Source: a bacterium
GTDB lineage: Bacteria > Patescibacteriota > Dojkabacteria > JAKAPS01 > JAJZLI01
Length of the DNA stretch: 64,000 nucleotides
Direction: 5' to 3'
Assembly: GCA_021816845.1 (NCBI GenBank)
Contig: JAKAWT010000001.1
Location: 262,087 to 326,086, forward strand
Both the position numbers and the translations under genes were made by a program. Shown here piece by piece: positions 584-62,219 of the stretch. The stretch's first letter is position 1; each line of letters opens with the position of its first letter. A model generated the notes under the pieces. It did not search any database. It had not been told where the DNA came from and was given only the letters and a program-made list of their open reading frames with translations.

Positions 584-2239
584 CTACTGGAAAAATTCCT
601 TTTCAAAATCAAAAGCAAATATTTTGCTATTTATATGGATATCTTTTGCTATAATTAACGCTTCACCTACGTCAAATTTTAATAAAGAGTCTTTTTCATC
701 ACTTGATAGTGAGAAAGAACGCGATAATCCAGCAAGATTTATTTTCTCCTGTTTTAATAGAACTTTCAGTGATGTATTTGCAATAATTGATCTTCCCTGT
801 TCTGTTGATATAAAATCCTCTACATCTTGAGTAATATAGAAAATTCCAAAATTATATTTCCTTGCCCTTTTTGAAATTGTTTTTAAATAATTAATAAGAT
901 CAACATTTTCAAACAATCTATGAGCTTCATCAATGAAAATTTCTCTTTGGGTTTTACCATCATGCATATTCCATATGAAATTTAAAACAAGATACATCAT
1001 CAATGATATATTTTCATTATCTAAACTTGAAATATCAAAAACTATTAAATCGTCATCCTTGGATATCTTTATATTAGTCTTTTGAGAATATAAGGATGCA
1101 TTTGTACCTTTTGCTATATTAAATATCTCATCTGCCATACGCGCCTTTGATTTTAAAAGTATATTATACAAATCAACAAATGTGGGAGTTTTGCAGTCTT
1201 TGTATATCCTAATTAAAGCCCTGTCAATTTCATTCTTATCATAATAACTACAGGCCCTTTTTAGAAAACCTTTTAAAAATTGTATCTTTTCTTCAACATT
1301 TTCATTCTTTGTTAAATCAAATGGATTTATATGAAACATTGAGTCATGGCTCAATTTTAAAACTTTGGATCTAGATCCAGAGGATCCAGATCCAGTATTG
1401 TTAAGATTTTTAGCAAGTTTTACATATTCTCCTTCTGGATCTATTACAATTGTTTTTATACCTTTTGATATCATCCTTAAGATGACAGTTTTTGCAAAAA
1501 AACTTTTACCAGCTCCAGACTTTGCAAACACGACTGCATTATAGTTTTCAAACTTAAATATATCAAAGGATATAATAGATTTAGTATTCACATTTATTCC
1601 ATATATTATTCCTGTAAAATCAATAAGGTTATTAGAAGTAAATGGAGTTGATGCTGCTACTGTCTTAAGATTAATAATAGTAGGTAAAGATATATTAGAA
1701 TATGCAGAGTGTAGTAGAGACTTAAAACCTTCAGCATGCCTTAGGTCTAATGGGTAAAATTTGAAACTGCGTGACGCTGTAAAAAGTTCAAAATTCTTAC
1801 AAGAAGTATTTAATGCTGATAGAGAATCTTCAGATATAGCAATAACTATACCAAAAACCATACCCTCTTCTTCCTGGTTTATAATAGATAAATTAAAATC
1901 TTCCAGATTTGAAATCTCAACATCTAGTGACATATCCCTTATTTTACCGGCAGATAATCTTCTGTGCCTTTTTGCTGATAATGATGCAATCCTCATTTTT
2001 ATACCTTGGAGTAAGGCCTTTTTATCAATAGGCTGTATAAACTGCCTTATTACTATATTCGAGTTCAAATTTAGAAAATCAGAAAAATAAAATGGGGTAA
2101 TATCTTGTGGAAAATCATACAGATAATACATTCTATAGAACCTACCGTCCATTTTTAGATATTTATGATTTTCATTTACTATCTTTGGCAATAAAATATC
2201 ACCAGACCCTTTAAAACTTATTTTTATTCTTTTATTCAT
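584..2239 (-). CDS. VirB4/TrbE/CagE-family T4SS ATPase, paralog A (551 aa, ATPase-bearing part)
   Basis: Walker A FAKSGAGKSF is followed by an IDPEGEY motif, and Walker B is IFIDEAH. It aligns along its length with the intact paralog at 7019..9196. An in-frame GS-rich insertion (NTGSGSSGSRSK) is encoded by the palindromic 15-bp repeat. Confidence 0.75.
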   Translation of the reverse strand: MNKRIKISFKGSGDILLPKIVNENHKYLKMDGRFYRMYYLYDFPQDITPFYFSDFLNLNSNIVIRQFIQPIDKKALLQGIKMRIASLSAKRHRRLSAGKIRDMSLDVEISNLEDFNLSIINQEEEGMVFGIVIAISEDSLSALNTSCKNFELFTASRSFKFYPLDLRHAEGFKSLLHSAYSNISLPTIINLKTVAASTPFTSNNLIDFTGIIYGINVNTKSIISFDIFKFENYNAVVFAKSGAGKSFFAKTVILRMISKGIKTIVIDPEGEYVKLAKNLNNTGSGSSGSRSKVLKLSHDSMFHINPFDLTKNENVEEKIQFLKGFLKRACSYYDKNEIDRALIRIYKDCKTPTFVDLYNILLKSKARMADEIFNIAKGTNASLYSQKTNIKISKDDDLIVFDISSLDNENISLMMYLVLNFIWNMHDGKTQREIFIDEAHRLFENVDLINYLKTISKRARKYNFGIFYITQDVEDFISTEQGRSIIANTSLKVLLKQEKINLAGLSRSFSLSSDEKDSLLKFDVGEALIIAKDIHINSKIFAFDFEKEFFQ

Positions 2240-2246
2240 AAATAAT

Positions 2247-2849
2247 CTATATAAAACTTAAAATATTAATAATCTCATCTCTTGTATCTACAATTTTTGC
2301 ACGTAGTGGAGTTTTGGAAAGTAAGAATAAAATTTGTTTATCATGGACCTTTAGAGAGTTATCTATGTTGTTTAATTCCTTCTTAAAAGATAAAGATTTC
2401 CTGGGATGTTTTATCTTATAAGTTATAAAAAACCTTTGGGAGTAAATCTTATTTTGCTTATAGAACATTTTAAAACTATCTTTGTATAATTTTTGTAAAT
2501 CTACTTTATTATTTTTGGATTCACTGGATCTGAATTCCCTGAATCTTAATCCTCGGGACCCAGATCCTCTGGATCTAGATCCTTTGGAATTTGGTCCTTT
2601 AATATTTTTTATATATTTTAAAATTTCACTTTCCTCTATCTCTCTAGATACTACAGTTATGTCTATCGGAATATGCACACCTTTTAAAAATTCTTTGTAC
2701 TTTTTTATAAAATCAATCTTTACATCTTCCTCAGATAGAACAAAATGTGAAGGGAAAACCTCTATGATTCTCATATAAAAATAATCTTTCAGGATTATTG
2801 TCCCTCCTAAAACATCAATTATTGGATAGAAATCATTTGTTTTTTTCAT
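2247..2849 (-). CDS. Conserved T4SS-associated protein immediately upstream of VirB4 (paralog of 9225..9908)
   Basis: Same position relative to VirB4 as 9225..9908, with recognisable similarity (…IIDVLGGTIILKDYFYMRIIEVFPSHFVLSEE… vs …NLLILKNGNVCIVIETSAVNFYLLSEIE…). It carries five degenerate 15-bp repeat units encoding GSRSRGSGSRG. Its stop codon lies 7 nt before the VirB4-A ATG, in a different frame. Confidence 0.4.
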   Translation of the reverse strand: MKKTNDFYPIIDVLGGTIILKDYFYMRIIEVFPSHFVLSEEDVKIDFIKKYKEFLKGVHIPIDITVVSREIEESEILKYIKNIKGPNSKGSRSRGSGSRGLRFREFRSSESKNNKVDLQKLYKDSFKMFYKQNKIYSQRFFITYKIKHPRKSLSFKKELNNIDNSLKVHDKQILFLLSKTPLRAKIVDTRDEIINILSFI

Positions 2850-3213
2850 TGAATTGAGACCTTTTTATTCCTAAGAATTTTGATTCTTGAAGCCTTACTT
2901 CTGGAAGCTCTGCTTCTTGGAGTTCTACTTCAAAGATATTGTATGAGAAAATATATTTTTTATCTTTGAATAAATATTTAATAGAATCCAAAATTAAGAT
3001 ATATGTAGGTCTCCCTCTATAATTTTGTTTTATCAAAAAATAGAAGATAGCTATAATAGAAGATCCTAAAAATATTTTTATATGTATATCAAGTGAAGAT
3101 ACTACCAAAAAAAGAATCGGGGGTGCTGAAAATAATACAACAAAAATATCTGAGGTTAGAGAGAAATAATTATTCCTTAAACTTTTGATTTTATAAACTT
3201 TTACTTTGTCCAT
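2833..3213 (-). CDS. VirB3-like small two-TM membrane protein
   Basis: 126 aa with two hydrophobic helices, sitting upstream of VirB4 as in VirB3/PrgI-type proteins. It resembles the N-terminal 110 aa of 9912..11819. Confidence 0.4.
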   Translation of the reverse strand: MDKVKVYKIKSLRNNYFSLTSDIFVVLFSAPPILFLVVSSLDIHIKIFLGSSIIAIFYFLIKQNYRGRPTYILILDSIKYLFKDKKYIFSYNIFEVELQEAELPEVRLQESKFLGIKRSQFNEKNK

Positions 3214-4465: not shown

Positions 4466-4519
4466 TTGACACAATATGACACAAATGATATAGTATAAGG
4501 GTAGTAATACTACCCTTAT
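4466..4519 (+). promoter_or_regulatory. Sigma70-like promoter with a 25-bp perfect palindrome operator overlapping the abiEi start codon
   Basis: -35 TTGACA at 4466-4471, a 17-nt spacer, then -10 TATAGT at 4489-4494. The palindrome ATAAGGGTAGTAATACTACCCTTAT (4495-4519) covers the predicted transcription start and the ATG at 4518. A direct repeat TGACACAA x2 lies at 4467-4484. Confidence 0.5.
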
Positions 4520-5111
4520 GTATAATCAAATTAAAAGTGTAGAAAAACTAATATTGTCTGGTAAAAAGGTTTTCACTACTGGAGATTTAGCCGTACTTTG
4601 GGAAATTACAAACAGAAATAGGCTGAGGGATAGGATAAAATATTATCTGAAAAATAAAAGACTTCAATCTATCCACAGAGGTATTTATGTTTATGATAAT
4701 AATTATACAAGGGAGGATATAGCACAAAAATTATTTCCATTATCATATATTTCTCTCTATACAACTTCACAAATATATGGACTAACATTTCAGTACTACT
4801 CAGACATTTATTCAATTGCCTTAAAAAGCAAAAAGTATGAAATAGATGGGACAATATACATATATCATAAGGTTAAAGAATCAATTTTTTATAACACCAT
4901 TGGACTAACAAATAATGGCAGGTATACTATTGCTAGTAAAGAAAGAACAATTTGTGATATGTTATATGTTTTCCCAAAGATATCTTTTGACAATTTAAGA
5001 GAAATAAATATCAAAAAATTAGAGGAAGTTTCTAAAATTTATGATAATAGAAGATTGGAAAAATCAATCAACAATATTATTTTAGACATTAATAAACATG
5101 ATAGATCTTGA
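4518..5111 (+). CDS. AbiEi-family antitoxin / transcriptional autoregulator (type IV toxin-antitoxin)
   Basis: About 197 aa with an N-terminal wHTH-like segment (…KVFTTGDLAVLWEITNRNRLRDRI…RGIYV…). It lies immediately upstream of and overlaps an AbiEii-like nucleotidyltransferase gene, and has a palindromic operator at its own promoter. Confidence 0.55.
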   Translation: MYNQIKSVEKLILSGKKVFTTGDLAVLWEITNRNRLRDRIKYYLKNKRLQSIHRGIYVYDNNYTREDIAQKLFPLSYISLYTTSQIYGLTFQYYSDIYSIALKSKKYEIDGTIYIYHKVKESIFYNTIGLTNNGRYTIASKERTICDMLYVFPKISFDNLREINIKKLEEVSKIYDNRRLEKSINNIILDINKHDRS

Positions 5112-5772
5112 AAAGCATGCACAAATACTAAAAAATATACTAAAAGATATTTACACTGATAAATATTTACAAACATCCTTAGCCTTTAAAGGAGGGTCTT
5201 GCCTATATATGTTTTATGGATTAGACAGATTTTCAGTTGATTTAGATTTCAACTTAAAAACTGAAAATTTTGATCCAGATAAGATTACAAAAATACTAAA
5301 GAACTATATCAACATAAATGATCAATCAAATAAAAGGTTTACATGGTTCTGGTTAGGGAGTTATGAAGAAAACAAACAAAAAATAAAACTAGAGATTTCT
5401 AAAAGGGATTATCCAGATAAATATATAAACAAAGATTTTTACGGTATTACCATTTCAATAATGGAACCATCCTACATGTTTGCACATAAACTCTGTGCCA
5501 TCACAGATAGAAAGGTACTGCAAAATAGAGATCTATATGATGCTCATTTTATGTTTAAAAAAGGGTTTGAAATTAATGAGGAGATTATAATGATTAGAAC
5601 TGGAAAAACTAAAAAAGAATATTTTGCATACTTGGTAAAATATATAAATGACAATGTTAATTCTCAAAACATCATTGAGGGATTAGGAGAATTATTAAAT
5701 AGTAGCCAAAAAGACAGTGTAAGAGCAACACTGCGTAGAGATATATTGTTTGATCTAGAGAGTAGAATGTAA
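5098..5772 (+). CDS. AbiEii/AbiGii-family nucleotidyltransferase toxin (DUF1814-like)
   Basis: Hallmark motifs LAFKGGSCLY (GGT/S) and RFSVDLDF (R-x-S-x-D-L-D-F). It overlaps the upstream gene by 14 nt. Confidence 0.65.
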   Translation: MIDLEKHAQILKNILKDIYTDKYLQTSLAFKGGSCLYMFYGLDRFSVDLDFNLKTENFDPDKITKILKNYININDQSNKRFTWFWLGSYEENKQKIKLEISKRDYPDKYINKDFYGITISIMEPSYMFAHKLCAITDRKVLQNRDLYDAHFMFKKGFEINEEIIMIRTGKTKKEYFAYLVKYINDNVNSQNIIEGLGELLNSSQKDSVRATLRRDILFDLESRM

Positions 5773-7018: not shown

Positions 7019-9196
7019 CTAGCTAACAATACTGTTATATTGTATCTGTGTATCCTCACCTCCTCCACTTGATTCAGGAGTTTCTTTATCAGTATCAGCA
7101 TCATCCCCTTCACCATCAATGCCATCTGGAGGAACACTTTCTGGTACCGGACTTTCTTGAGATATTCCATCCTGCCTTAAGGGTTCAGACTGGGGTTCTT
7201 CAGTTTCATCTAGCGTATTTTTACCATCTACATCTGCAATTGTATTTGGAACTATCCTATCTAACGATGCACCTTCTGCTCTCATTTTTAATATTTCTTC
7301 TGGATTTGTAGTTATTAGTTTATATTCATATTCGGAAGAATAGATTTGGATTGCTACATGATTTGCACCAACAAAGAATATTCCTTCACCAATTTCCGCA
7401 GATAAAAGTAAATTTTTCTCCCCTGCAGATAAATAAAAGACGTCAGAAAGATGGTCTATAGCAGTAGGAGACTGTCTTAATAAAATCTGAATTGAAGAGT
7501 TAGTAACCACAGCCTTTCCATACTCATTGGATAGAAAATCATCTACATCCTGAGATACCGTAGTAAGACCAAGGTAATATTTCCTTGCTCTTTTTGAAAC
7601 TGCATAAACAAATTGTGCAGAATCAGGGTATTGCATTAATATCCAAGCCTCATCTATTATGAATAGTCTTCTCTTCAGTTCTTTTTTAACCCTTGTCCAT
7701 ATAAAATCCAACATTAAAAACATGGCTATTGGCCTAAGTTCATCTGATAAATCTCTTATTGAAAACACCATAAATTGGTTATTAATATCTACATTTGTAT
7801 GTTGATCAAAAATTCCAGAAGCAGAACCTTTAACAAATTTCTCTAATCTTTGAGCTAGACTATGAGCTTCATCCTCTTCCATTGAAAGGAGGATTTTATA
7901 CAAATCTTCCATTAGAGGTGGATCTTTTACCTGTGTTGAAGGATCAAAAGTTATACCTTTATCTCTGTATGTTAAGATCAAAGCCTTATCTAGTATAGCA
8001 TTCTCCATATTGGTAAGACCTCCTTCCTCACCTCCAAGCATAACTTTAAAAAGCCCATGGAGAGAAAGAATTTTAAACCTTAGTTCATCTTCTCCTTCCT
8101 CATAAACTCCAGATAAATCAAATGGATTTATCTTTGAATCTCCATCTTGGGAAAAAGAAATATATGACCCGTTCATTGCCTTACACAATGTCTCATATTC
8201 CCTTTCTGGATCTATTATTATAATCTGAGTACCTAACATGAGAGATCTTAATGCTTCAAGCTTTACAAGAAAACTCTTCCCTGCTCCAGATTTTGCAAAA
8301 ATTACAGAATTTGCATTCTCAAGATCAAATCTATCAAAAACTACGAGACTTTTATTTGCCTTATTTATTCCATACAAAACTCCTCTGTCTGAAGTTAGTT
8401 CTGATGATACAAAAGGGAATGTTGTAGCTATGGACGTAGTATCCATATTGTGTGTATAGTACATTTTGTCATTACCTTCAGGAAGAGTCGACTTAAATCC
8501 CTCCTCCATTTGGAGGGTTGCTGGTTTAATGATAAGAGACATAGCTCCTAGCGTCGCTTCAAGATTTTTAGATATATCATTAAGTTCTTCAAGTGTATCC
8601 GCTCTTATTGATACATATAAGGCAAAATGGAAATACCTTTCTGATCCTTTCGCAAGATCATCCTGTAATTGTTTTGCATCCTCCAAAGCAACCTTTAAAT
8701 TAGGATCCAAAACTTTCCCTGAATCTATCATGGTATTTGTTGTAGCCTCCATTTCAGCGATTTTTCTTCTAAGTTGTACTAAAACAGTATTTGAGCTTAT
8801 AGGATAATAGAACATACTTATGTCTATGGAATGTTCAAATGTAATTAGAGGAGATAACCAATTGGGAACAACATACCTTGGATATGCAATAGCAAAATAT
8901 GTTTTATAATATTTCTCCCCGATCTTTATATGGGCAAAATCCACTTCAATCGAGGCGGGAGCAATAATATCTTTAATAGAATTTATACCTGTCCCAAACT
9001 CTATTAGAGGATCTTTTGCTGTCTGATCATCAAGACTTTCCATAACTTGTGACTGACCTCCTTGTAGTTGACCTCCTTGTGGTATGGCATTCTGAGCATA
9101 GAAAGTATTAGCATCGTTCTGCTGAGTAGCAGTCCCCTGTTGAGGAGTGACTGTTTGATTATTCTTCTTTTGTTGTTTTTTAAACGGTAAGTTCAT
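7019..9196 (-). CDS. VirB4/TrbE/CagE-family T4SS ATPase, paralog B (intact, 725 aa)
   Basis: Walker A IFAKSGAGKSF, IIDPEREYE, Walker B IIDEAW. It has a Gln-rich N-terminus and an acidic C-terminal tail (…GEGDDADTDKETPESSGGGED…). Confidence 0.8.
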   Translation of the reverse strand: MNLPFKKQQKKNNQTVTPQQGTATQQNDANTFYAQNAIPQGGQLQGGQSQVMESLDDQTAKDPLIEFGTGINSIKDIIAPASIEVDFAHIKIGEKYYKTYFAIAYPRYVVPNWLSPLITFEHSIDISMFYYPISSNTVLVQLRRKIAEMEATTNTMIDSGKVLDPNLKVALEDAKQLQDDLAKGSERYFHFALYVSIRADTLEELNDISKNLEATLGAMSLIIKPATLQMEEGFKSTLPEGNDKMYYTHNMDTTSIATTFPFVSSELTSDRGVLYGINKANKSLVVFDRFDLENANSVIFAKSGAGKSFLVKLEALRSLMLGTQIIIIDPEREYETLCKAMNGSYISFSQDGDSKINPFDLSGVYEEGEDELRFKILSLHGLFKVMLGGEEGGLTNMENAILDKALILTYRDKGITFDPSTQVKDPPLMEDLYKILLSMEEDEAHSLAQRLEKFVKGSASGIFDQHTNVDINNQFMVFSIRDLSDELRPIAMFLMLDFIWTRVKKELKRRLFIIDEAWILMQYPDSAQFVYAVSKRARKYYLGLTTVSQDVDDFLSNEYGKAVVTNSSIQILLRQSPTAIDHLSDVFYLSAGEKNLLLSAEIGEGIFFVGANHVAIQIYSSEYEYKLITTNPEEILKMRAEGASLDRIVPNTIADVDGKNTLDETEEPQSEPLRQDGISQESPVPESVPPDGIDGEGDDADTDKETPESSGGGEDTQIQYNSIVS

Positions 9197-9911: not shown

Positions 9912-11819
9912 TTATATTCCACTAATATTTGTTTTTTCCTCCTTTGATACAGGTATGAACATAAAAGGAGGGATTATTTGGCCACTAATTTCTATTGTTG
10001 CAGTATTAAACTTGTATCCTGCTGCATCAACCTCTATTTCATATCTACCTAAAGGTAAAGGTGTTCTTGTGAAAAACTGCCCTAATTGATTAGTTTTTAC
10101 AGCCCTAACAGGTTTTTGGTTTGTATCTTTTACTATAACTATAGCGTTGTTCAGTATTTTATCCTCATCTGTAATAACAACTCCTGCAACAACATTAGCA
10201 ACCTTTGTAAACTCTGGAAGATGATCAATTAATTGCTGTCTAGTAAGGCCTATAGATTGATCTTGATTGGTCTGATCTAAATTACCTGGTGTATTATCAG
10301 ATTTTTTTTCTTCATGTATCAAAGATTGATCCTGTGGTTGACCTTGGGCCTGAGGTCCTTGGGCCTGAGGACCTTGGATCTGAGGTCCTTGGACTGACTC
10401 TTGATCTGATGTCTGCATATTTCCAAAATCCTGTGATTTAGGTGCAGACAAAGTTGGTTCTGTAAATTTTTGCCCATCTTGTTCTGCAGATACAGACTTC
10501 TCTGTAAGCTGAGTTTTCAATCTCTGGTTTTCTTCCTCTAATGCCTGTATCCTTGTTAATATTTTAGCAAGCTCGGCTTCTCTTGACTCACCCTCAGAAT
10601 GAGTTGTTGCAGCAACTGTGGGATCAAGATCCTTGGGATCAAGATCCGTTGGATTAAGATCCTTGGGATTAAGATCCTTGAGATCGGGTTCCTCGGGATC
10701 AAGTTCCGCGGATTTGACTTGAGTATTATTTGATGTATTTGAAGATAGGTCTGTGGAAACAGCTTTAGTATCAATACTTGAAGATACATCTTGTTGCACT
10801 ACATCCGCCTCTTCTTTATTAATGGTAGTTGGCTCTGTAGAAGATGTTACTGTTTGCTCTTGTGGAATCGTTTGAGTAGGTGATGTATTTTCAGTATTAA
10901 TCTGATCGACAATATCTTGAAAAGGATTATCTATCTGCCCAACATTAGAGGTTTCAGGTTTAGCTTGGGTATTTATAAAATCATCTCTAATATTGGGATT
11001 TACAGATGATCTAACTTCTTCTGCTGCAGAGACTGGAGTTATGTTATTTATATTGAAAGGATTGTACTGAGGGATTTTATCTCCATCTTTAGTATCTTCA
11101 CTACCAGTTGAAGTATTGGGTATAGCACCTGGTATGTCAGGACCATTAGATATAGAACCTATCCCTTGAAGATTATCTTTCTGAAGATTACCATCCTGTA
11201 TGGGCATTCCTGATAGAATATTTGGACTTGCAACAAAAGGGTCACTCGCTACATGCATTGTAGACCCCTGATTAAACAAATCAGTTCCTAGATTTGAAGG
11301 TGGCGTAGACCCACTAGTAGATCCATTAGATATCATACTATTTATCTTATCAATATTTGCAATTAAAGTCTTCTCCTTTACATCAAGGGCGTTATCTACT
11401 GCATCTTCATTAACTGAATTTAGTGAATTATCAAAAGGAGATTGGTATAGAAACATAGAAACATCTTTTTTATTGTTATTTTTATTAACCATAGGCCTAT
11501 CAATCTTCAAAATATTGGGTATAACTTCATTTTTCTTCCAAACCCTTTGGGTAGGATTTTTTATTGCAACTATAAAATTTGTAATCCACTCATCTAGAGG
11601 TCTATCATCAATAGGAACAAAAGCTATTGCCAAAGCTAAAAGAACAAATATTGCAGTAAATGGAACAGTTATGTAGTTACTTATTTTTACAACATACATT
11701 ATAAATCCAATCAACAAAGGTGTTGCAATTATAAGGAATTGCCTCATAGACATATTCCCTATAAGTTTAAACTGAATACTCATTATATTTTGAGGAATTG
11801 AATGCTGTTTCTCGTTCAT
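9912..11819 (-). CDS. VirB3-like N-terminal membrane module fused to a long disordered region, a coiled coil and a C-terminal transthyretin/CarboxypepD_reg-like beta-sandwich
   Basis: The N-terminal two TM helices resemble 2833..3213. The low-complexity region includes a (KDLNP)x6 array and GPQAQ repeats. A coiled coil (…AELAKILTRIQALEEENQRLKTQLTEK…) is followed by the C-terminal …VVAGVVITDEDKILNNAIVIVKD…GRYEIEVDAAGYK…. Confidence 0.45.
   Translation of the reverse strand: MNEKQHSIPQNIMSIQFKLIGNMSMRQFLIIATPLLIGFIMYVVKISNYITVPFTAIFVLLALAIAFVPIDDRPLDEWITNFIVAIKNPTQRVWKKNEVIPNILKIDRPMVNKNNNKKDVSMFLYQSPFDNSLNSVNEDAVDNALDVKEKTLIANIDKINSMISNGSTSGSTPPSNLGTDLFNQGSTMHVASDPFVASPNILSGMPIQDGNLQKDNLQGIGSISNGPDIPGAIPNTSTGSEDTKDGDKIPQYNPFNINNITPVSAAEEVRSSVNPNIRDDFINTQAKPETSNVGQIDNPFQDIVDQINTENTSPTQTIPQEQTVTSSTEPTTINKEEADVVQQDVSSSIDTKAVSTDLSSNTSNNTQVKSAELDPEEPDLKDLNPKDLNPTDLDPKDLDPTVAATTHSEGESREAELAKILTRIQALEEENQRLKTQLTEKSVSAEQDGQKFTEPTLSAPKSQDFGNMQTSDQESVQGPQIQGPQAQGPQAQGQPQDQSLIHEEKKSDNTPGNLDQTNQDQSIGLTRQQLIDHLPEFTKVANVVAGVVITDEDKILNNAIVIVKDTNQKPVRAVKTNQLGQFFTRTPLPLGRYEIEVDAAGYKFNTATIEISGQIIPPFMFIPVSKEEKTNISGI
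10621..10710. repeat. 15-bp tandem repeat x6 (GGATCAAGATCCTTG family) encoding KDLNP/KDLDP pentapeptides inside 9912..11819
   Basis: Direct reading gives ggatcaagatccttg / ggatcaagatccgtt / ggattaagatccttg / ggattaagatccttg / agatcgggttcctcg / ggatcaagttccgcg. This is the same unit family as the GGATCTAGATCC repeats at 1367, 2525 and 40458. Confidence 0.8.
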
Positions 11820-18133: not shown

Positions 18134-19621
18134 TTATAGTGCAAGGAGAAATAATATGTATGGAATATACAATACTCCATCTTTAAGCATTGGATTAAAA
18201 TCTTTTGTTAATATTATTTTTTTCAAAAATCCAAATTTTTTTGACAGATTTAAAAAGTTTTTTGTGTATTTAACATTAATACCTACTGCATAGTCTGAAT
18301 ATGATAATATAAAGTCTATTTCTTTTTCTCTATCTCTAAAATATTCTATTGATGTAGCAACTGATTTTTGTAGGAGGGAAATTAGAACTATATTTTCAAG
18401 ATATTTATTAAAAAGATCAATATTTGATAATATTTCTTCTAATTTTATTTTTAATATACTATTTCGTATTCCCATATCAATCAAGAATACCTTTATATTA
18501 GACACCTTGTTGATATTAGATCCATACTTTGAAAGAGTTAATATTAGATTAGATTCTCTAAGGAGAGATATATATCTTTCTAATGTTTCTCTATGAAGGC
18601 CAGTTTCTCGTACAAGCTCATTTAAAGAATATTCTTCGGAAGGGTGGGATGCAAAAAGAAAAAATAAATTAGCTAAAGAAGAAGTATTTTTTATATCTTC
18701 TAGAATATAGATATCTTCGAGTAATACTTTCTCAATTTGAGTTTGGTATAAATATTCATATTGGAGTGTAGTATCCTGGATCTCCCATCCTTCTATGAAT
18801 CCTCCTACTATTAAGTATTGCTCAAAGAGGAGATACAGTTCATCAGAGAATAAACTCAAACCTAAAGAGAATTTTTCGAATGTATCGAAAATTTTAGATA
18901 CAGGCAGATTAAATAATGTTTCTCCAAATTTTCCTATTAAACTAAGGTTTTTAGAAATTTCTTCTTTGGCCTGAATATCCAATTTATCATCAAAGGATAT
19001 TTTAAAGGATACAAATTCTGAGAAAGAAAAAGGATATATTTTGAAATTCTTTATTCTTCCGGCTAAAGATTCTTTACTTTTTGACACTATAGATGAAGAG
19101 ACTGATCCTGATACTATAAATTTTATATTATAATTTTTGAATCTAGATCCATTATCGTAATATTTTTTTAGGAATAGCTCCCAATCAGAAAATTTATGAA
19201 TTTCATCTATTAGAAAATAAACTTTTTCTGTGTTGAAATCTTTTAGATTCTCACCTTCCACATTTCTTAAAAGATAATACTTTTCATAAACTGAAAGTAT
19301 TTTATCAAAAAATACAGGGTTTCCTCTTTTTGAAAATATATAAGGATCATCCATTGAAAGGTAAACTATATTCTGAGGAAGTACATTCTCAATAATAATA
19401 AGATCCGATATAATCTGCTTTATAATAGTAGTCTTACCCACTCTTCTTGGTCCGGTTATTGATACAATTTGTCTTAGTTCTGTAACACTTACAAATATAT
19501 CATTATATACGAACCTCCTAAATAGTGGAGTATTTAGCGATGAATTTTTATTCTTCCACCAAGGATTATAAAATTCGAGAGTTTTCCTTATTATTTGATC
19601 TTCTAAATCTACACTAGACAT
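18134..19621 (-). CDS. AAA+ ATPase with a DUF4143-like C-terminal domain
   Basis: Walker A ITGPRRVGKTTII, Walker B FLIDEIH, and length and architecture typical of the ATPase-DUF4143 family. Confidence 0.65.
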   Translation of the reverse strand: MSSVDLEDQIIRKTLEFYNPWWKNKNSSLNTPLFRRFVYNDIFVSVTELRQIVSITGPRRVGKTTIIKQIISDLIIIENVLPQNIVYLSMDDPYIFSKRGNPVFFDKILSVYEKYYLLRNVEGENLKDFNTEKVYFLIDEIHKFSDWELFLKKYYDNGSRFKNYNIKFIVSGSVSSSIVSKSKESLAGRIKNFKIYPFSFSEFVSFKISFDDKLDIQAKEEISKNLSLIGKFGETLFNLPVSKIFDTFEKFSLGLSLFSDELYLLFEQYLIVGGFIEGWEIQDTTLQYEYLYQTQIEKVLLEDIYILEDIKNTSSLANLFFLFASHPSEEYSLNELVRETGLHRETLERYISLLRESNLILTLSKYGSNINKVSNIKVFLIDMGIRNSILKIKLEEILSNIDLFNKYLENIVLISLLQKSVATSIEYFRDREKEIDFILSYSDYAVGINVKYTKNFLNLSKKFGFLKKIILTKDFNPMLKDGVLYIPYILFLLAL

Positions 19622-19726: not shown

Positions 19727-21013
19727 CTAAATTTTGGATATGTCTCTTGGTGAAAACTCATTAAGTATCCAATTGAGAAGGATTTTAGTTTTAGATCCTT
19801 TCCCAAACATTTGAGATAAATAAAAATATCTCCATAAAAACCATGCCATCTTACCCATAAATATATTCTTACCAATACTAATAGCGGCGTTATTATGTCC
19901 TAATGATAATATTAACCCTTTTTGTCTTAATACAAATGGCACTGCAGGTTTTTTTATAATTGAATTATATATATTCCTTGCACATGTTTCTGATTCATCC
20001 ACCGCAGTTTGCGCAAGTTGAGGGAGAGAATTATCGTCTGTATCTGCAACATCTCCTATTGCAAAAACATTCTCTATCCCTTTTATATTCAAGTTATGAC
20101 CAATTAATATCCTTCCTGACTTAGTTAATTCAAAATCCCCACCAGGAATATTGGGACTTACTCCAGCAGCCCATATAGCAATATCAAAATCTACACTTCT
20201 CTCTTTAGATGAAGATTCCTCATCTAACTTTTCTAAAATTATTCTATCCTTCATCACTTCTTTTGCTCTTGCATTCAAAATCAAAGATATTGGTGACTTT
20301 CCAAATCTAAAAAGATTGAACACTTCCTTTTTTAGTCTCAAAGAAAAATTTGGAAGAAAATTGTCTGATGCATTTAAAATCTTTATATCTATATCGCTTT
20401 TTTTATCTTTAAATATGGAATAATTAGGGATAAGGGTATCAGTAAATTCAGATATTTCAGTAGCAATCTCAATACCAGTAGGTCCTCCTCCCACAATAGC
20501 AATCTTAATCTGTTTTTTATTTTTACTTTCTTCTCTTTCTTCAAATAATCCAATTATTTTATTCTTTATTAAAATTGCATCCTCTAGGGTTTTCAAAGGC
20601 AATGTAAACTCTTTTGCACCAGGAGTATTCCTAAAATTAACTGATGCACCAGTAGCTATAACAAGATAATCATATTCAATTTCACTGTTTAAAAGATAAA
20701 CTTTGTTTTTTTTAAAATCAACACATTTTACAGTATCAAGAATAAAATCAGTAACACAACAATCTATATTTCCTCTTACTGGAGATATGACATCTTCAGG
20801 AACTAGTGTCCCTGTAGCAACTTCATGTATTAATGGAGTAAATAAAAAATAGTTTTTATCGGAAACTATAGTAAATTCAACTAATCTATCCTTATGGGTT
20901 AATTTATGTAGATTTAGATAAGTATTAACCCCTCCAAACCCAGAACCTAGAATTACAACTTTTTTTTTACTTTTTACCCCAATTTCAGTTCCTTCTGCTG
21001 TTTTTGTCATCAT
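19727..21013 (-). CDS. Type II NADH dehydrogenase / FAD-dependent pyridine nucleotide-disulfide oxidoreductase
   Basis: Two Rossmann motifs: VVILGSGFGG and IAIVGGGPTGIE. Confidence 0.75.
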   Translation of the reverse strand: MMTKTAEGTEIGVKSKKKVVILGSGFGGVNTYLNLHKLTHKDRLVEFTIVSDKNYFLFTPLIHEVATGTLVPEDVISPVRGNIDCCVTDFILDTVKCVDFKKNKVYLLNSEIEYDYLVIATGASVNFRNTPGAKEFTLPLKTLEDAILIKNKIIGLFEEREESKNKKQIKIAIVGGGPTGIEIATEISEFTDTLIPNYSIFKDKKSDIDIKILNASDNFLPNFSLRLKKEVFNLFRFGKSPISLILNARAKEVMKDRIILEKLDEESSSKERSVDFDIAIWAAGVSPNIPGGDFELTKSGRILIGHNLNIKGIENVFAIGDVADTDDNSLPQLAQTAVDESETCARNIYNSIIKKPAVPFVLRQKGLILSLGHNNAAISIGKNIFMGKMAWFLWRYFYLSQMFGKGSKTKILLNWILNEFSPRDISKI

Positions 21014-21575
21014 ACATGTTTTTATCTGCTATATTAATCATGTCTTCCAAATTATGAGCATCTTTCGTTGAAATTGCAATACCAAATGAAGCTTCACATC
21101 CACCTAATTCTACAAAATCCCTTATCCTTTGACGCATTTTTGTAATTTCGCTGTCTTCTTTTGGCACCCCATATAAAATTATAATAAACTCATCACCTCC
21201 AGATCTTATCACTCTATCATAAGGACGAGATGCACCTTTTAGTAACTCAGTAAATTTTTTAATATATAAATCACCTTCCTCATGCCCCATACTGTCGTTA
21301 ATATCCTTCAAATGATCCAAATCTGCTACAACTACAGCAAACAACTCTCCTCTATCAAATCTTGAATTCAGTTCTCTTTTAAGTTCAGTACTTTGTAAAA
21401 ACTTTTTATTGTATGCCCCTGTAAGCCCATCTGTAAATGATTCATCATGTAGCATTTGATTTTCTTCTTTGAGTAAAGAAATCTCTTTTTTTAAATCTTC
21501 AATTATACGCCTAAGTTCTAATGGGTCACCTTCCTCTTGAATCTTGGGCTCCTGGACTATAACTTTATCTTCCAT
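20985..21575 (-). CDS. Stand-alone GGDEF diguanylate cyclase with an N-terminal coiled coil
   Basis: GGDEF signature RSGGDEF, upstream DGLTGAYNKKFL, and an N-terminal leucine-zipper-like segment. It overlaps the start of the downstream NDH-2 ORF by about 29 nt. Confidence 0.8.
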   Translation of the reverse strand: MEDKVIVQEPKIQEEGDPLELRRIIEDLKKEISLLKEENQMLHDESFTDGLTGAYNKKFLQSTELKRELNSRFDRGELFAVVVADLDHLKDINDSMGHEEGDLYIKKFTELLKGASRPYDRVIRSGGDEFIIILYGVPKEDSEITKMRQRIRDFVELGGCEASFGIAISTKDAHNLEDMINIADKNMYDDKNSRRN

Positions 21576-33737: not shown

Positions 33738-35073
33738 TTTTTAATTTTGCAGATAATACTTGTTTTTCCTTCTCAAATCCTGGTTTTGAAAGTAAGGTAT
33801 ACATATATTCTTTCCCTTTCTCTACACCAGGTTGATTAAAAGTATCTATCTCTAGCATATTCCCAAGGTACGCACAGGCAAGTTCAAAAAAGTAAAAAAG
33901 TCCTCCCATAGTCTTTGGGTCAAGACCTTTTGAAGGCATATTGTCAAGTATAATAGTACCATTTGATCTTTGGTTCTCTCGTAGCGACAATGCAGTTGCT
34001 TCTCTCTCTATAGAAATTAATTCCCTAAAACCCTTTCCATTAAGATATTCAAATTCCTTTATTTCTGTTTTTATTTGTGGATTATTATCAAAAATTTCTC
34101 CAAAAATAAAAGTTACAATCAAATCATTTGGGCCTTCATTGTAAAGTTGTATTTGTGAATGTTGATCTGTTGATCCCAAAGATGCTATTGGTGTAATACC
34201 TGTGTTTACAATATTTCCATTTATATCAATTTTCTTTCCTAAACTCTCTGCCCATAACTGCCTATACCAAAAAGCAAAACTCCTGAGTTTCTCAGCATAT
34301 GGCATAACTACACCTATATTTTTACCATACAATTTATAAGATAAAAAATTAAGTTCTGCGAACATCAAAGCGTCATTAGAAAATGGATTAGGACTTGAAC
34401 AATTATTATCAATCTCTCTTGCACCTTCTAGAAATTCTCTTGAATCTAATCCCATAACCTCAGCTGTTAACATACCTATGACAGATAATACTGAGAATCT
34501 ATCTCCTACAGAACTTTCGCCTTCTATGATACTAATACCTTCTTTCTTACCAACTCTATAAAGAGAACTTTGAGGGGAACTTGTTGTTATATATATATTC
34601 TTACTTATATACGAAGGACCAAGGTTTTGTTTTATAAAATCCATAATGTATAAAAACACGGAAATAATTTCTACAGTTTCCCCTGATTTAGAAATAATAT
34701 TAAAAACAGTCTTATCAAGATCTTTTTTAATTTCATCAAAGAAATCAGAAATCTGATCAGGGTCAGTATTAGCCCCAATAAAAGAAATTTCCGTATTACT
34801 TTTTCGTTTTAGTGCCCCAACTATTGCCCTTGAACCTAAATCTGATCCCCCTATTCCCACCACTACATATCTTTTAAAATTTTTCTTTATGTGATCTCCA
34901 AGAGCTTTAATATCTTTGGTTCTAGAACTATTGTTATCTTCATATATTAAGTCTCTGAAAGTTAAATCCTCTTTATTAAAAGAAGAGGATTTAAAATCGA
35001 AAAGATCTTCTTTCTTTATAGCCTTATCCTGAACCGCAGGATAAAGCATATTGGTATAGTTATATTTAATCAT
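33730..35073 (-). CDS. pgi: Glucose-6-phosphate isomerase
   Basis: VVVGIGGSDLGSRAI motif. 447 aa. Confidence 0.8.
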   Translation of the reverse strand: MIKYNYTNMLYPAVQDKAIKKEDLFDFKSSSFNKEDLTFRDLIYEDNNSSRTKDIKALGDHIKKNFKRYVVVGIGGSDLGSRAIVGALKRKSNTEISFIGANTDPDQISDFFDEIKKDLDKTVFNIISKSGETVEIISVFLYIMDFIKQNLGPSYISKNIYITTSSPQSSLYRVGKKEGISIIEGESSVGDRFSVLSVIGMLTAEVMGLDSREFLEGAREIDNNCSSPNPFSNDALMFAELNFLSYKLYGKNIGVVMPYAEKLRSFAFWYRQLWAESLGKKIDINGNIVNTGITPIASLGSTDQHSQIQLYNEGPNDLIVTFIFGEIFDNNPQIKTEIKEFEYLNGKGFRELISIEREATALSLRENQRSNGTIILDNMPSKGLDPKTMGGLFYFFELACAYLGNMLEIDTFNQPGVEKGKEYMYTLLSKPGFEKEKQVLSAKLKNG

Positions 35074-37905: not shown

Positions 37906-39861
37906 TTAAAGGACTTCTCCTTCTTTTGCTGCTGGTTCCTCACCATCCTCTGGTGAAGACTGTTCTTGATTAGAAGATTCTCCTCCTGATTCACCGCCTT
38001 GGGACTGATCTCCTTGAGGCTGATCTCCTTGTGGCTCACCACCTTGAGGCTCAGATTGTTGGTACATAGAACTACCAATTTCTTGCATCAAGGATTCAAG
38101 CTCATTTATAGCAGTTTGAATTTCTTCCTTCAAAACAGGCTCTTTTGAAGAAACTTCTTTTAATTTTGCAATTTTATCTGTTAGTTGAGATTTTTTATCT
38201 TCAGGAATTTTATCTTTATTCTCATCTATAAATTTTTCAGATGAAAAGATTACAGTTTCTGCAGTATTTTTTATCTCAACACTTTCCTTTTTTGCTTTAT
38301 CTTCCTCTTCATGTTCCTTTGCCTCTTTAAGAAGTTTTTCAACTTCCTCGTCAGATAATGCTGTATTGGCTGTTATAGTTATATGTTGACTCTTCCCTGT
38401 GGCTTTATCAGATGCAGATACTTTTAATATCCCATTAGCATCAATATCAAAGGCAACTTCAATTTGAGGAATACCTCTTGGAGCTGGAGCAATACCATCA
38501 AGAATAAATCTCCCTAATGTTTTGTTGTCTGCAGCCATTTCTCTTTCCCCTTGTAAAATATGTATTTCAACTGAAGTTTGGCTATCTGCAGCAGTAGTAA
38601 ATATCTGTTTTTTCTGAATAGGAATTGTAGCATTTCTCTCTATAAGTCTTGTGGACACACCCCCTAACGTTTCAAGCCCTAAAGATAAAGGTGTAACGTC
38701 AAGTAATGTTACATCCCTAACATCACCAGCTAGAACTCCAGCTTGAACTGCTGCTCCAACAGCAACAACTTCATCTGGGTTTACGCTCTTGTTCGGTTCT
38801 TTTTTGAAAAAATCTTTAACCGCATCAACTATTGCTGGCATTCTAGTCATTCCACCTACAAGGATAACTTCATCAATATCTGAAGGACTCTTTTTTGCAT
38901 CAGCCAAAGCTTTTTTCACTGGTTCCATAGTTTCTTTTACTAGATCTCCAACCAAATTTTCAAGTTGAGCCCTAGTCATTGTTATATTTAAATGTTTTGG
39001 ACCAGATGCATCTGCAGTTATAAATGGAATATTTATTTGTGTTTGAGCAGTAGATGAAAGTTCTATTTTTGCTTTTTCAGCTGCTTCCTTAAGTCTCTGT
39101 AATGCAGAAGAATCTTTTCTTAAATCAACACCATTTGTTTTTTTAAAATCCTCAGCTAGATAATCGATAATTTTTCTATCAAAATCATCCCCTCCAAGAT
39201 GAGTATCTCCATTTGTAGATATAACCTCAAAAACACCATCTCCTAATTCTAGTATTGAAATATCAAATGTTCCTCCTCCAAGATCATATACAGCAATTGT
39301 CTGTTCTCCTTTTTTATCAAAACCATATGCTAATGCTGCTGCAGTAGGTTCATTTACTATTCTCTTTACATCCAAACCTGCTATTTTACCAGCATTTTTA
39401 GTTGCTTGTCTTTGTGAATCATCAAAATATGCAGGAACAGTAATTACAGCCTCTGTTATCTTTTCACCTAAAAAACTTTCTGCATCCTGTTTTAATTTGG
39501 ATAAAACCATAGCAGAAATTGCCTCAGGAGCTAACCACTCATCTCCAAATTTGATTTCTACTCCTCCACCTGTAGATTTTCTTATTTCAAATGGAAGTAA
39601 TTTTATATCTCTTTGAACTTCTGGATCATCAAAGGTTCTTCCTATAAGCCTTTTTATAGAATAAAAAGTATTTTTAGGATTTAAAACCATTTGATTCTTA
39701 GCTGTAACACCAACAGCTCTAGATTTATCATTTAATATAGCTATGACAGAAGGAGTTGTGCGAGCACCCTCACTATTCTCTATAATAGTTGGAGTACCCC
39801 CCTCCATAACAGCCATAGCTGAATTTGTTGTTCCTAAATCGATTCCTAATATTTTTGACAT
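37906..39861 (-). CDS. dnaK: Chaperone DnaK (Hsp70)
   Basis: [18 protein letters not shown] and [11 protein letters not shown] signatures. The C-terminal tail has EPQG/DQPQG repeats. Confidence 0.95.
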
Positions 39862-39892: not shown

Positions 39893-40522
39893 CTAAGATT
39901 CTTTTTTCCCAACGATTATCCTTGCTGGACGAATAACTTTCCCATTTTGTTCATATCCAACCCTAACAACTTGTATAACCTTATTCTCTTTTTCAGGATC
40001 ATCAACATTCACTGTCCCTATTACCTCATGATTTAATGGAGAAAATGTATCTCCTTCGTTAACTACCATCACCTGAGCTCCCTGACTTTTCACAATATCA
40101 TTACATTTATCTAAAATAAGTTTGATTCCACTTTTTATTTCGGATATATTAACTTTTTCATTTCCACCCTTCTCGCTCTGTTCAAGATGAACAATATATG
40201 AATATATATCATCTGATATTTCCAAAAATTGACGAAGTAACATGTTGTTTGTTATCCCAACCATATTCTCCTTTTCTATCTCCGTTCTCTTCTTTAGATT
40301 TTGATAATCAGATAAAGCACTTTTAAGTAAATTAGTTGTTTTCTCCAATTCACCTTTCAGAGCCTGTATTTCCTCATCCCTTTTATCAATTTCCTCAAGA
40401 ACCTCATCTGTTACATCTTCCACACGAGAATCAACTTTCGCCTTTTTATTTTCTTTTAGATCTAGATCTTTTGGATCTAGATCCATTGGATCTAAATTCT
40501 TTTTTTGTTTTTTTTCTGCCAT
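39893..40522 (-). CDS. grpE: Nucleotide exchange factor GrpE
   Basis: Coiled-coil N-terminal half and a C-terminal GrpE beta domain, located between hrcA and dnaK. The N-terminus carries a DLDPMDLDPKDLDL insertion encoded by three 15-bp palindromic repeat units. Confidence 0.85.
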   Translation of the reverse strand: MAEKKQKKNLDPMDLDPKDLDLKENKKAKVDSRVEDVTDEVLEEIDKRDEEIQALKGELEKTTNLLKSALSDYQNLKKRTEIEKENMVGITNNMLLRQFLEISDDIYSYIVHLEQSEKGGNEKVNISEIKSGIKLILDKCNDIVKSQGAQVMVVNEGDTFSPLNHEVIGTVNVDDPEKENKVIQVVRVGYEQNGKVIRPARIIVGKKES

Positions 40523-41337: not shown

Positions 41338-41395
41338 CTTGTCAAGGCATATATGTCAAGACATGTATGTCAAGATATACATCTTGTCAAGAGTC
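41338..41395. repeat. Four direct repeats of (A/C)TGTCAAG(A/G) in the hrcA / 41421 divergent intergenic region
   Basis: cttgtcaagg, atgtcaagac, atgtcaagat and cttgtcaaga at a regular spacing of about 13-16 bp. Confidence 0.5.
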
Positions 41396-44052: not shown

Positions 44053-44526
44053 ATGGAAGATAATAACTATGGTGATTATCCATACAAAACAATTCCTCTA
44101 GAGGTAGGAAATACACAAAACAATTTTGTTACAAATTTAAACTCTAGAGTTTTAAGTTCAAGAATACAAAAATATATTGGTATACAAAAAAAACTTTTAT
44201 TATGGAAAAGACCTCTCTTTTTATTCTATAGTATATTTAGCATATATATCATCATATTATTACTATTTTTTACAATAAAATATTTCATATCTCTACCATC
44301 ATTAATCCCTGCATTACTTTTTAGCCAACATAGTTATTTAATATCTAAATATATATTGTTTTTTTTAATCATCATTGATATATCATTCTCTTTAATATCA
44401 ACATTTATATATTTAAAAATTTATTATAGAATAAAAGAAATTGCATATTTTACCATTATATTCAATCTAATGTTTAGTGTTCTATTGTTTTTAACATTTT
44501 ATAAGATTATACAGATGTCATTATGA
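44053..44526 (+). CDS. Hypothetical polytopic membrane protein
   Basis: 157 aa, with three hydrophobic helices. Confidence 0.35.
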   Translation: MEDNNYGDYPYKTIPLEVGNTQNNFVTNLNSRVLSSRIQKYIGIQKKLLLWKRPLFLFYSIFSIYIIILLLFFTIKYFISLPSLIPALLFSQHSYLISKYILFFLIIIDISFSLISTFIYLKIYYRIKEIAYFTIIFNLMFSVLLFLTFYKIIQMSL

Positions 44527-45629: not shown

Positions 45630-46076
45630 TTGGTTTTAAGGATAATGATGTTGTATAATAATTATATGAAAGAAAAAATTAAAAAATCAAAAGGATATAA
45701 TCAAAAAAACTCTAAACCTAAAAAAGATGTTTTAAAATTAGATGAAATTATAGGTTCTATACCTCTATATTGTGATAAATGTGGTTCTTTGCACAACAAA
45801 GATAATATTGAAATAATAGATAAAAACGAAAACCTCACAATTATATATATGATGTGTGAAAATTGCCTTTCTAAAAACATTATGTATGTTATAAAACCAC
45901 TCAATGTGATAAATAAAACTGTAATAAATGTTGATTTAGAATCAAATGAAATAAAAAAATTTGCTGGATCAAAAGCTATAACTACAGATGATATATTAAA
46001 TATCTATTCAATTATAAAATCAAAAAAAATAAATAAAGCAAAAGATCTCATTGATGAATTATCAAAAATAGATTAA
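45630..46076 (+). CDS. Zinc-ribbon protein
   Basis: Two Cys pairs, CDKCGSLH … CENCLS. Confidence 0.4.
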   Translation: MVLRIMMLYNNYMKEKIKKSKGYNQKNSKPKKDVLKLDEIIGSIPLYCDKCGSLHNKDNIEIIDKNENLTIIYMMCENCLSKNIMYVIKPLNVINKTVINVDLESNEIKKFAGSKAITTDDILNIYSIIKSKKINKAKDLIDELSKID

Positions 46077-53635: not shown

Positions 53636-53640
53636 AATAT

Positions 53641-62216: not shown

Positions 62217-62219
62217 ATT

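Follow-up and report, generated by a model that had tools for sequence, protein, structure and literature searches.

A small palindromic tandem repeat recurring in frame at unrelated loci of a patescibacterial genome and its sister lineages

Several genes of unrelated function in a 64-kb stretch of a Dojkabacteria genome (64,000 nt of contig JAKAWT010000001.1, assembly GCA_021816845.1, hereafter the window) share a short palindromic unit, which is repeated in tandem and translated as part of the encoded proteins. One and the same dyad-symmetric DNA unit has been found at many unrelated loci, where it is read in two frames, and it occurs in non-coding DNA as well. Sister species are not alike in the loci occupied or in the number of units, the complementarity of the palindrome arms is kept through paired changes, and arrays within open reading frames (ORFs) always have a period of 15 nt, those outside ORFs mostly one of 14 nt. 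The insertions sit in loops, linkers and termini of the host proteins. Sequence comparisons show the arrays to be recent, lineage-specific insertions, and the four sites that were recognized first are supported as parts of a DNA-level, frame-tolerant and dynamic repeat family rather than as unrelated low-complexity patches. We consider it probable that a clade-specific dyad-symmetric micro-repeat has arisen by hairpin-assisted slippage and occasional copying to new sites, with selection for those copies that preserve the reading frame.

The unit consists of a 12-nt palindrome (5-bp arms and a 2-nt centre; consensus GGATCTAGATCC) together with an A-rich spacer of 2-3 nt. The host gene described first and the arrays initially reported are the following:

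584..2239, minus strand: host gene 1, the second VirB4/TraG-like ATPase of the type IV secretion system (T4SS) cluster, 551 aa (Pfam P-loop_TraG, DUF87, AAA_10)
1367..1396, minus strand: two-unit array in this VirB4-like ATPase; plus strand GGATCTAGATCC AGA GGATCCAGATCC AGT; encodes GSGSSGSRS
2517..2600, minus strand: five-to-six-unit, partly degenerate array in the partner gene 2247-2849 (200 aa); encodes GPNSKGSRSRGSGSRGLRFREFRSSES
10621..10710, minus strand: six-unit array of the variant GGATC-AA-GATCC in the PrgI-family gene 9912-11819; encodes (K/T)DL(D/N)P repeats
40458..40502, minus strand: three-unit array at the N-terminus of GrpE (gene 39893-40522); encodes NLDP-MDLDP-KDLDL

The exact 12-mer GGATCTAGATCC occurs at 1367-1378, 2571-2582 and 40473-40484, and none of 100 dinucleotide shuffles of the window has given a single match. 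The first-pass annotation had reported three copies, far more than expected by chance, and both statements hold, as do the first two start positions; the third copy starts at 40473 and not at 40475. With up to two mismatches to the core, 17 window sites have been obtained against 2.06 expected (shuffle maximum 6). The four 15-bp tandem arrays that had been claimed are recovered by Tandem Repeats Finder, which reports period 15 at 1367-1395, 2519-2583, 10619-10707 and 40452-40503, in agreement with direct reading, and the proposed 16-bp identity between two of the sites is exact: the 16-mer TTTGGATCTAGATCCA is common to the VirB4-like ATPase site (1364-1379) and the GrpE site (40470-40485). All four host genes lie on the minus strand, and their translations confirm the frame usage described earlier. 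The frame GGA TCT AGA TCC, which gives GSRS, is used in the VirB4-like ATPase and its partner gene, and the frame GAT CTA GAT CC, which gives DLDP, in GrpE and the PrgI-family gene; the proteins contain KGSRSRGSGSRG (partner gene), NLDPMDLDPKDLDL (GrpE) and ELDPEEPDLKDLNPKDLNPTDLDPKDLDP (PrgI-family). In an AlphaFold2 model of the VirB4-like ATPase, which is of moderate quality (mean pLDDT 58.8) and has been used solely for local loop assignment, the inserted residues are predicted with low confidence as a loop, flanked by a well-predicted helix (273-281) and strand (290-295). The other insertions fall in tails at either terminus or in linkers that are long and variable.

A connection of the GATC-containing core with restriction or methylation, which had been suggested as well, finds no support: the ratio of observed to Markov-expected GATC is 0.88 and unremarkable among 4-mer palindromes. 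A restriction-modification or Dam gene has been sought in the window and none was found, the only methylase or endonuclease domains being those of rRNA and tRNA methyltransferases. Avoidance of GATC or CTAG has accordingly been rejected, with neither depletion nor relevant genes in the window. Rfam families gave no match anywhere in the window.

For comparison, syntenic loci have been retrieved from three or four sister lineages (L004/L005; L006-L008 with L170; L172), which are ~80-87% identical to the window in protein and ~85% in nucleotide sequence. Gain or loss between sisters has been observed at every locus tested, and the check for unit-number polymorphism that the first-pass annotation had called for yields 0/1/2, 0/~2.4/5, 0/0/6 and 1/3 units at the four sites:

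VirB4-like ATPase: window NNTGSGSSGSRSK (2 units); L004 NDKGPRSK (1 unit, GGACCAAGATCC); L006/L170 NGK (0 units)
Partner gene: window 25 extra residues (5 units); L004 none; L006 12 extra residues (36 nt, ~2.4 units)
PrgI-family gene, KDLDP array: window 6 units; absent in L004 and L006/L170
GrpE N-terminus: window 3 units; L006/L170 KDLGQ-KDLDP-KGLDP (3 units); L172 and others KDIDP or RDISP (1 unit)

Since unit numbers differ among close relatives, the arrays are not carried in identical form by all of them, the outcome that the first-pass annotation had named as a refutation. The close homologues of the VirB4-like ATPase, with 546 and 541 aa, are 5 and 10 residues shorter, precisely at the array; more distant ones (537-543 aa) carry no insert, and the array is absent (NGK-type) in ten such homologues (P0004-P0013). 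The L006 insert in the partner gene, together with adjoining target bases, can be read as three cores, GGACCTAGGGCC ACA GGACCTGGGTCC AAA GGATCTAGATCT.

Six family loci have been counted in the window and at least six more in the sisters. Single units are found among them, one in the window:

33913..33936, minus strand: single 15-nt insertion in phosphoglucose isomerase (PGI; 33730-35073), read as M-P-S-K-G-L-D-P-K; has AAAGGTCTTGACCCAAAG, arms GGTC/GACC

Exactly 15 nt are missing at the same place of PGI in both sisters, and the unit matches the KGLDP unit of the sister GrpE array at 13 of 15 positions. A corresponding case is the L170 orthologue (L170 7420) of the 715-aa gene 41883-44030, in which a single 15-nt insertion creates GGATCTGGATCC (PFGSRS); exactly these 15 nt are missing in the window and in L172, no local template exists, and the 12-mer GGATCTGGATCC is identical at three unrelated loci in three lineages. 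A 10-residue insertion is found in the L170 orthologue of 44053-44526, and unit-like segments occur in sister DnaA and DnaN. As an observation of its own, the DnaN beta-clamp (window 46465-47610) shows at alignment column 164 an 11-residue insertion in two sister lineages and not in the window (KDVDSKSLGKE and KSTDKKSPNDK), the first part of which resembles a family unit (AAAGATGTAGACTCA).

Arrays outside ORFs have been observed in the sisters as well. The sortase-dnaJ spacer of L004 contains an intergenic three-unit array, which is degenerate in the genome of the window and absent in L006, and an intergenic array of about seven units, ranging from GGTTCAAGAACC to GGATCAAGATCC, lies upstream of the 6-phosphogluconate dehydrogenase (6PGD) gene in L172. 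In L170 the C-terminal tail of 6PGD itself is an array of about seven units with 15-nt and 14-nt periods that runs on into the spacer: translation follows the D-frame through the first two units, changes frame at a unit of 14 nt, and terminates at the CTAG centre of the unit after it, which serves as stop codon. The earlier statement that the TAG-containing frame is never used is therefore refuted by one case, and this frame is used exactly where truncation does no harm. Likewise, of the proposal of a coding-tolerant, dynamic repeat family, the dynamic part is sustained by the differing unit numbers of the sisters, and the restriction to coding DNA falls with their intergenic arrays.

The 3' end of GrpE, AAGAATCTTGATTC (K-E-S-stop), is triplicated with a 14-nt period in L170 and L172, and it is single-copy and non-palindromic in the window (AAGAATCTTAGTTT). 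This non-coding array shows local seeding and leads to the question of whether all arrays have a purely local origin, each having grown by slippage from its own seed, so that the shared GGATCTAGATCC would reflect convergence through codon usage and easy expansion without any copying between loci. The GrpE 3' end, the region upstream of hrcA and the KDIDP seed at the GrpE N-terminus indeed grew from local sequence, and three unrelated contigs (L141, L138 and L157) hold independent 15-nt arrays with the same core. We nevertheless regard such an origin of the whole family as unlikely, since no local seed is present in the sisters for the insertions in the VirB4-like ATPase, PGI, L170 7420 and PrgI, identical 12-mers and a shared 16-mer stand at unrelated loci in different frames, and TCC is, by our estimate, an unexpected serine codon at 30% GC.

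The symmetry of the unit has been examined in an alignment of 38 units, which were extracted by hand from all arrays. Of the arm cells, 88.6% are paired, and doubly changed cells number 12 compared with 3.3 +/- 1.6 in shuffles, a value of 12 being reached in none of 500 shuffles. The variant cores GGACCTGGGTCC, GGGTCTGGACCC and GGTTCAAGAACC are perfectly symmetric, with the arms GGACC..GGTCC, GGGTC..GACCC and GGTTC..GAACC, and direct reading finds AGATC..GATCT arms to be likewise symmetric, at least four different compensatory arm types having been distinguished. In GGGTCTGGACCC the pairing is restored by a synonymous GAT to GAC change. This bears on the possibility that the peptides are what is selected, KDLDP and GS-rich pentapeptides serving as functional linkers or binding motifs that were recruited independently by secretion and chaperone proteins. 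The insertions are hydrophilic and placed in loops and termini, and two host genes encode the same DLDP motif, as one would expect in that case. We hold it to be very improbable all the same, as a single DNA unit gives unrelated peptides in two frames, is also found between genes and beyond a stop codon, has its arm pairing restored by the synonymous change just mentioned, and encodes no match to the Pfam pentapeptide family (PF00805) or any other repeat family. The encoded peptides are probably neutral hydrophilic linkers.

In single-stranded DNA folding of the VirB4-like ATPase array, adjacent units form a 13-bp stem with a 3-nt loop (-10.2 kcal/mol, z -4.9). Inter-unit hairpins of seven arrays have reached z-values of -3.2 to -4.9 in five and of -1.7 to -1.9 in the other two. 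The period is equally conspicuous: local 8-mer self-matches in the window number 53 for an offset of 15 and 35 for one of 30, with at most 17 at all other offsets, and in an unbiased census of 33 orthologue sets, 15 of 33 in-frame indels of at least 2 aa are multiples of 5 aa (p 8e-4), or 11 of 28 (p 0.015) when the four sites of the first-pass annotation are left out. Tandem arrays of 14/15 nt with palindromic units are in excess throughout the clade, and the family is one instance of this. Perfect arms of at least 5 bp occur in 10 of the 20 period-14/15 arrays of the window and its sisters, representing at least six unrelated sequences, compared with 3.6% of random 15-mers (p ~5e-10). Within genes, each of the eight distinct array loci has period 15; of the six arrays in non-coding DNA or across a stop codon, period 14 is seen in three and period 15 in two, the sixth being mixed (p ~0.015 for the difference, by our own hypergeometric estimate).

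Dispersal to many loci, a dyad symmetry maintained by compensatory changes, A-rich sequence on both sides of the units and the abrupt restriction to one clade would also suit a genuinely mobile miniature element (a "nano-MITE" or a hairpin of the REP kind) that is moved by an enzyme encoded elsewhere, with AAA as the target-site duplication. Conceivable movers are a tyrosine transposase, IS200/IS605-type or RAYT-like, and a nuclease specific for hairpins. Such an element is in our view quite unlikely, since the 64-kb window has no transposase, integrase or nuclease candidate and 12 nt is far below known terminal-repeat or REP sizes. Moreover, arrays of other palindromic sequences behave alike, which argues for a general mutational process rather than for sequence-specific recognition.

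These other arrays in the window, some of them related to the family only by period, are listed here:

10342..10392, minus strand: second 15-nt array in the PrgI-family gene, QGPQA x 3.4 units; absent in both sisters (L004 and L006/L170)
37997..38051, minus strand: 15-nt array in the DnaK C-terminal tail, EPQGG/DQPQG; period as in the family, sequence different
2884..2931, minus strand: 15-nt array in the 126-aa gene 2833-3213, EVELQ/EAELP/EVRLQ
9050..9079, minus strand: two 15-nt units (QGGQL, QGGQS) in the main VirB4 gene 7019-9196
41340..41393, no strand assigned: non-coding array with 14-nt period upstream of hrcA, TGTCAAGACATATA; palindromic units with 6-bp arms

The QGPQA array has weak dyad symmetry, and its unit GGACCTCAGGCCCAA equals, in our own comparison, the sister intergenic unit GGACCTAGGCCCAA with one inserted base, which makes it by sequence a probable diverged member of the family. 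In the sisters, the dnaK unit of L172 (GAGGCGAGCCTC) has perfect 5-bp arms, the L006 orthologue of the 2884-2931 array is built of GAATCA(A/C)TGATTC units with 5-6-bp arms, and the main VirB4 array comprises three QG(D/G)LP units in L006 and none in L004. The array upstream of hrcA amounts to four times TGTCAAG(A/G) and is not a CIRCE element; no tandem array is present at this position in the sisters, where L170 has one TTGTCAAGA and L172, besides one such copy, a TTGTCAATA set apart from it. The window array may bind a regulator of the hrcA-grpE-dnaK operon, or it may simply be a further palindrome-seeded expansion. Two near-core matches, which may be old single units or chance, have been noted apart from the arrays. 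One is GAATCTAGATCC at 19139-19150 in an AAA_14 ATPase gene, read as GSRF; the other is TTATCTAGATCC at 50340-50351 in a pilin gene, read as LSRS, a stretch that L172 encodes as GGATCTAGATAA.

Within the species, the independent assemblies L001-L003, L178 and L180, from several samples, show 100% identity to the window in those arrays that they include; for L179 the identity is 99.97%, with no gaps. Identical arrays in independent assemblies imply that the sequence is not an assembly quirk. An artefact, be it an assembly error or contamination by an engineered linker or polylinker, may come to mind because the core looks like hybrid BamHI/BglII half-sites around an XbaI-like centre and encodes a GS-rich peptide; with the same sequence in independent assemblies of several samples, and with diverged in-frame versions at the same and other loci of sister species, its probability is practically negligible. 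A more divergent strain, L176 (99.6% identity over 20.6 kb), is separated from the window by 69 substitutions and two indels, one in a homopolymer and one of 15 nt, the latter being exactly one unit of the dnaK C-terminal array and the only indel larger than 1 nt. One of the substitutions, at 40477, falls within the GrpE core. The arrays are hence dynamic but are not hypervariable contingency loci. The 1-nt indel of L176 falls in a T-run at 45612, in the last codons of the gene 44523-45620 and just upstream of the ORF 45630-46076; the ORF calls of L176 and the window read 142 vs 148 aa for the downstream and 366 vs 365 aa for the upstream gene.

Slippage and quasipalindrome mechanisms have been established in E. 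coli genetics, and the micro-repeat could be generated in a corresponding way. A palindrome with the same 2-3 nt (AA or AAA) on either side would fold into a hairpin in the nascent strand and return the 3' end to the upstream short direct repeat, so that replication would copy the palindrome again; a re-copied palindrome plus spacer would give a period of 14 or 15 nt (12 + 2 or 12 + 3). Two adjacent units could then pair as the far stronger 13-bp hairpin, which would ease further gain and loss. Template switching within the hairpin (quasipalindrome correction) would transfer a change in one arm to the opposite arm and is proposed to yield compensatory arm variants without selection. Occasionally, the unit may be copied elsewhere by template switching or short-patch conversion at junction-like sites (CCAAAGG, AAAGG), and as the donor is periodic, entry and exit at the same microhomology is proposed to add exactly n x 15 nt. 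Within ORFs, selection would retain units of 15 nt that are read as GSRS or DLDP, that have their A-rich spacer on the coding strand and that lie at structurally permissive positions, a 14-nt unit shifting into the CTAG (stop) frame and being tolerated only at the C-terminus.

Several observations weigh against this account. We infer the mechanism, and no enzyme, intermediate or rate has been observed; the sequence basis comprises the ~64-kb window and 20-40 kb per sister. Since the genome is A-rich and lysine-rich, microhomology at the junctions (AAAGG, CCAAAG) carries little weight. The covariation alignment was assembled by hand, and since units of one array are related by descent, its cell counts overstate the independent events. 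Among the strains with 99.97-100% identity, no unit-number change has been found in the GGATC arrays, and the sole change at strain level falls in the dnaK array, which is not of the GGATC type. Period 15 instead of 14 is seen in one clear intergenic array and possibly in another. Finally, the dyad symmetry of the PrgI QGPQA, window dnaK and VirB4 QGGQL arrays is at chance level. The assumption that all period-15 arrays are dyad-symmetric has thus been rejected, and with little symmetry in several of them, hairpins are not the whole reason for the 15-nt period.

By analogy, the closest known kind of element is the protein-coding palindromic repeat, i.e., the Rickettsia palindromic elements (RPE) and their analogues in Wolbachia and Methanocaldococcus (Ogata et al., 2000; Claverie and Ogata, 2003, as cited in PMC2996958). 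RPE measure ~150 bp, stand alone, encode a conserved peptide of tens of residues and lie in frame in many genes (PMC10969869). The unit described here resembles them as a dispersed dyad-symmetric repeat of a reduced genome that stands in frame in unrelated housekeeping genes, at permissive positions and with copies outside genes, and that behaves as selfish or neutral DNA adding peptide segments. Dispersal over unrelated loci, dyad symmetry and non-disruptive in-frame insertion at loops or termini are all found, the hosts being the VirB4-like ATPase, GrpE, PGI and PrgI, and 6PGD in a sister. It differs in the size of the unit (14-15 nt, 5 aa), its mostly tandem arrangement with variable number, its use of two frames, its sequence, which has no similarity to RPE, and its host, which belongs to the Patescibacteria and not to the Rickettsiales. 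RPE proper, as stand-alone, homologous sequences of ~100-150 bp, do not include a mostly tandem 14-15-nt unit of unrelated sequence. PARCELs, in turn, have units of 75 nt (25 aa), are amphipathic, match DUF285/TIGR02167 and form dedicated ORFs of unknown function, often membrane proteins (PMC2996958). Common to both are tandem, intragenic, dyad-symmetric coding repeats of variable copy number that are dispersed within genomes, but the 15-nt units sit in conserved enzymes and chaperones. No DUF285 match has been obtained in the eight proteins that were scanned with Pfam, four hosts included, and the repeat spans 5 residues, so that it is not a PARCEL. The pentapeptide-repeat fold (PF00805, A(D/N)LXX), in which long runs make up a beta-helix, has been rejected as well, with no match in PrgI or GrpE at E <= 0.01 and only 2-6 units, each containing a proline.

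Coding variable-number tandem repeats (VNTRs) and contingency loci likewise have in-frame tandem units, with numbers that change by slippage. Between close strains, the dnaK array differs by one unit at 99.6% identity and the GGATC arrays are unchanged at 99.97-100%; between species, the differences in unit number are large. A VNTR unit is, however, normally private to one locus, whereas one unit is common here to at least eight loci in two frames, the 12-mer and 16-mer recurring at unrelated loci in different frames, and the hosts are mostly housekeeping genes rather than surface antigens; a single-locus VNTR is thus rejected. Palindrome-stimulated slipped misalignment between short direct repeats and quasipalindrome template switching have reportedly been described by Glickman and Ripley in 1984, by Trinh and Sinden in 1993, and by Ripley and Lovett. 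As in these systems, a palindrome plus one flanking repeat is duplicated or deleted and the arms are "corrected" towards symmetry, but those are single-locus experimental hotspots in E. coli, whereas the present family is lineage-specific and dispersed to new loci. REP and REPIN sequences are likewise short hairpin-forming repeats that proliferate in a genome and are often adjacent. REPs are 20-40 bp long and extragenic, carry GTAG or CGTC tags and depend on RAYT (PMC3116915, PMC3733652). The present core has 12 nt, is mostly intragenic and lacks a GTAG or CGTC tag, which rejects membership, and no RAYT (Y1 transposase) or other transposase gene is found in the 64-kb window.

A bolder idea, which we regard as doubtful, is that the genus-level clade harbours the smallest self-propagating protein-coding repeat yet seen, a palindromic 14/15-nt "nano-element" that would actively spread copies of itself to further sites, by means of a dedicated hairpin-processing enzyme or because hairpin surveillance was lost. 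It would then write pentapeptide linkers into essential proteins (DnaK, GrpE, PGI, 6PGD, DnaN and secretion ATPases), with many insertion events per genome since the split of the sister species, and would be a live case of the palindrome-insertion route to protein innovation that has been proposed for Rickettsia. The micro-repeat is of interest under the slippage-and-copying account, too. Palindromic insertions that keep the frame of housekeeping genes had drawn attention in Rickettsia. The present unit is ten times smaller than the Rickettsia palindromic elements, the events are recent enough for empty sites, single units and arrays to be seen together across sister genomes, and its rules are readable from the sequence (15 nt in ORFs vs 14 nt outside, two frames and one stop frame, kept symmetry). 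The origin of protein linker segments from repeats of a non-coding type thereby becomes testable, and an unusual mutational feature of a single lineage of ultra-small symbiotic bacteria comes into view. In practice, such arrays will make orthologues vary in length and can lead to wrongly called starts and ends of genes; they may also be useful as markers for strain typing.

Beyond the clade, neither the family nor an excess of period 15 has been found in L174 and L175 (~52% protein identity). The strict tandem pattern has 42 occurrences in the whole JGI metagenome collection, mostly isolated chance matches, and among the matches listed for the relaxed pattern GGATCNAGATCCNNNGGATC in genome contigs, nearly all are chance or DP.DLDP peptides of GC-rich genomes. 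Literature searches have found no description of such arrays in the Candidate Phyla Radiation (CPR)/Patescibacteria, which does not prove their absence. The unrelated metagenome contigs L141 (~900-1000), L138 (~2470-2560) and L157 (~1660-1700), with GC contents of 0.45-0.60, contain 15-nt arrays with the GGATCTAGATCC core in the DLDP frame, and L138 also holds the cyanobacterial HIP1-like GCGATCGC; the GGATCTAGATCC palindrome may thus expand recurrently in distant organisms.

The window as a whole has a GC content of 30.6%, and its close protein homologues carry the NCBI label "Patescibacteria group bacterium". Its type IV secretion cluster comprises two VirB4/TraG-type ATPases, a PrgI-family protein and a T4SS pilin, and further genes are those for type IV pili, hrcA-grpE-dnaK, dnaA-dnaN and pentose-phosphate enzymes. 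The adjacent dnaN and dnaA genes on the minus strand (46465-49381) and a minimum of the cumulative GC-skew at ~44-48 kb place the replication origin probably within the window. Inside the secretion cluster, an AbiEii-domain gene (5098-5772) and a 197-aa partner upstream of it (the pair at 4518-5772) are present in the window and L004, whereas L006 lacks both at this position; the pair has the look of a small inserted toxin-antitoxin or abortive-infection module. Distant and sister relatives (L174 879-1305, L004 15236-16635) have long tandem repeats of 153-162 nt, located in the PrgI-family gene and in a Kelch-like 1808-aa protein; these form a different class of repeats within genes of this neighbourhood. 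At 20985-21575, a GGDEF diguanylate cyclase gene that stands alone would be expected to be atypical of so reduced a genome. Possible cell-surface or host-interaction proteins are encoded in the region 52025-63631, namely by a run of large ORFs without Pfam match (536, 225, 1571, 282, 229 and 241 aa) and by the gene of a 787-aa protein with only a weak NlpC/P60 match and a 12-nt GGAGGTGGTTAC repeat at 61575-61607.

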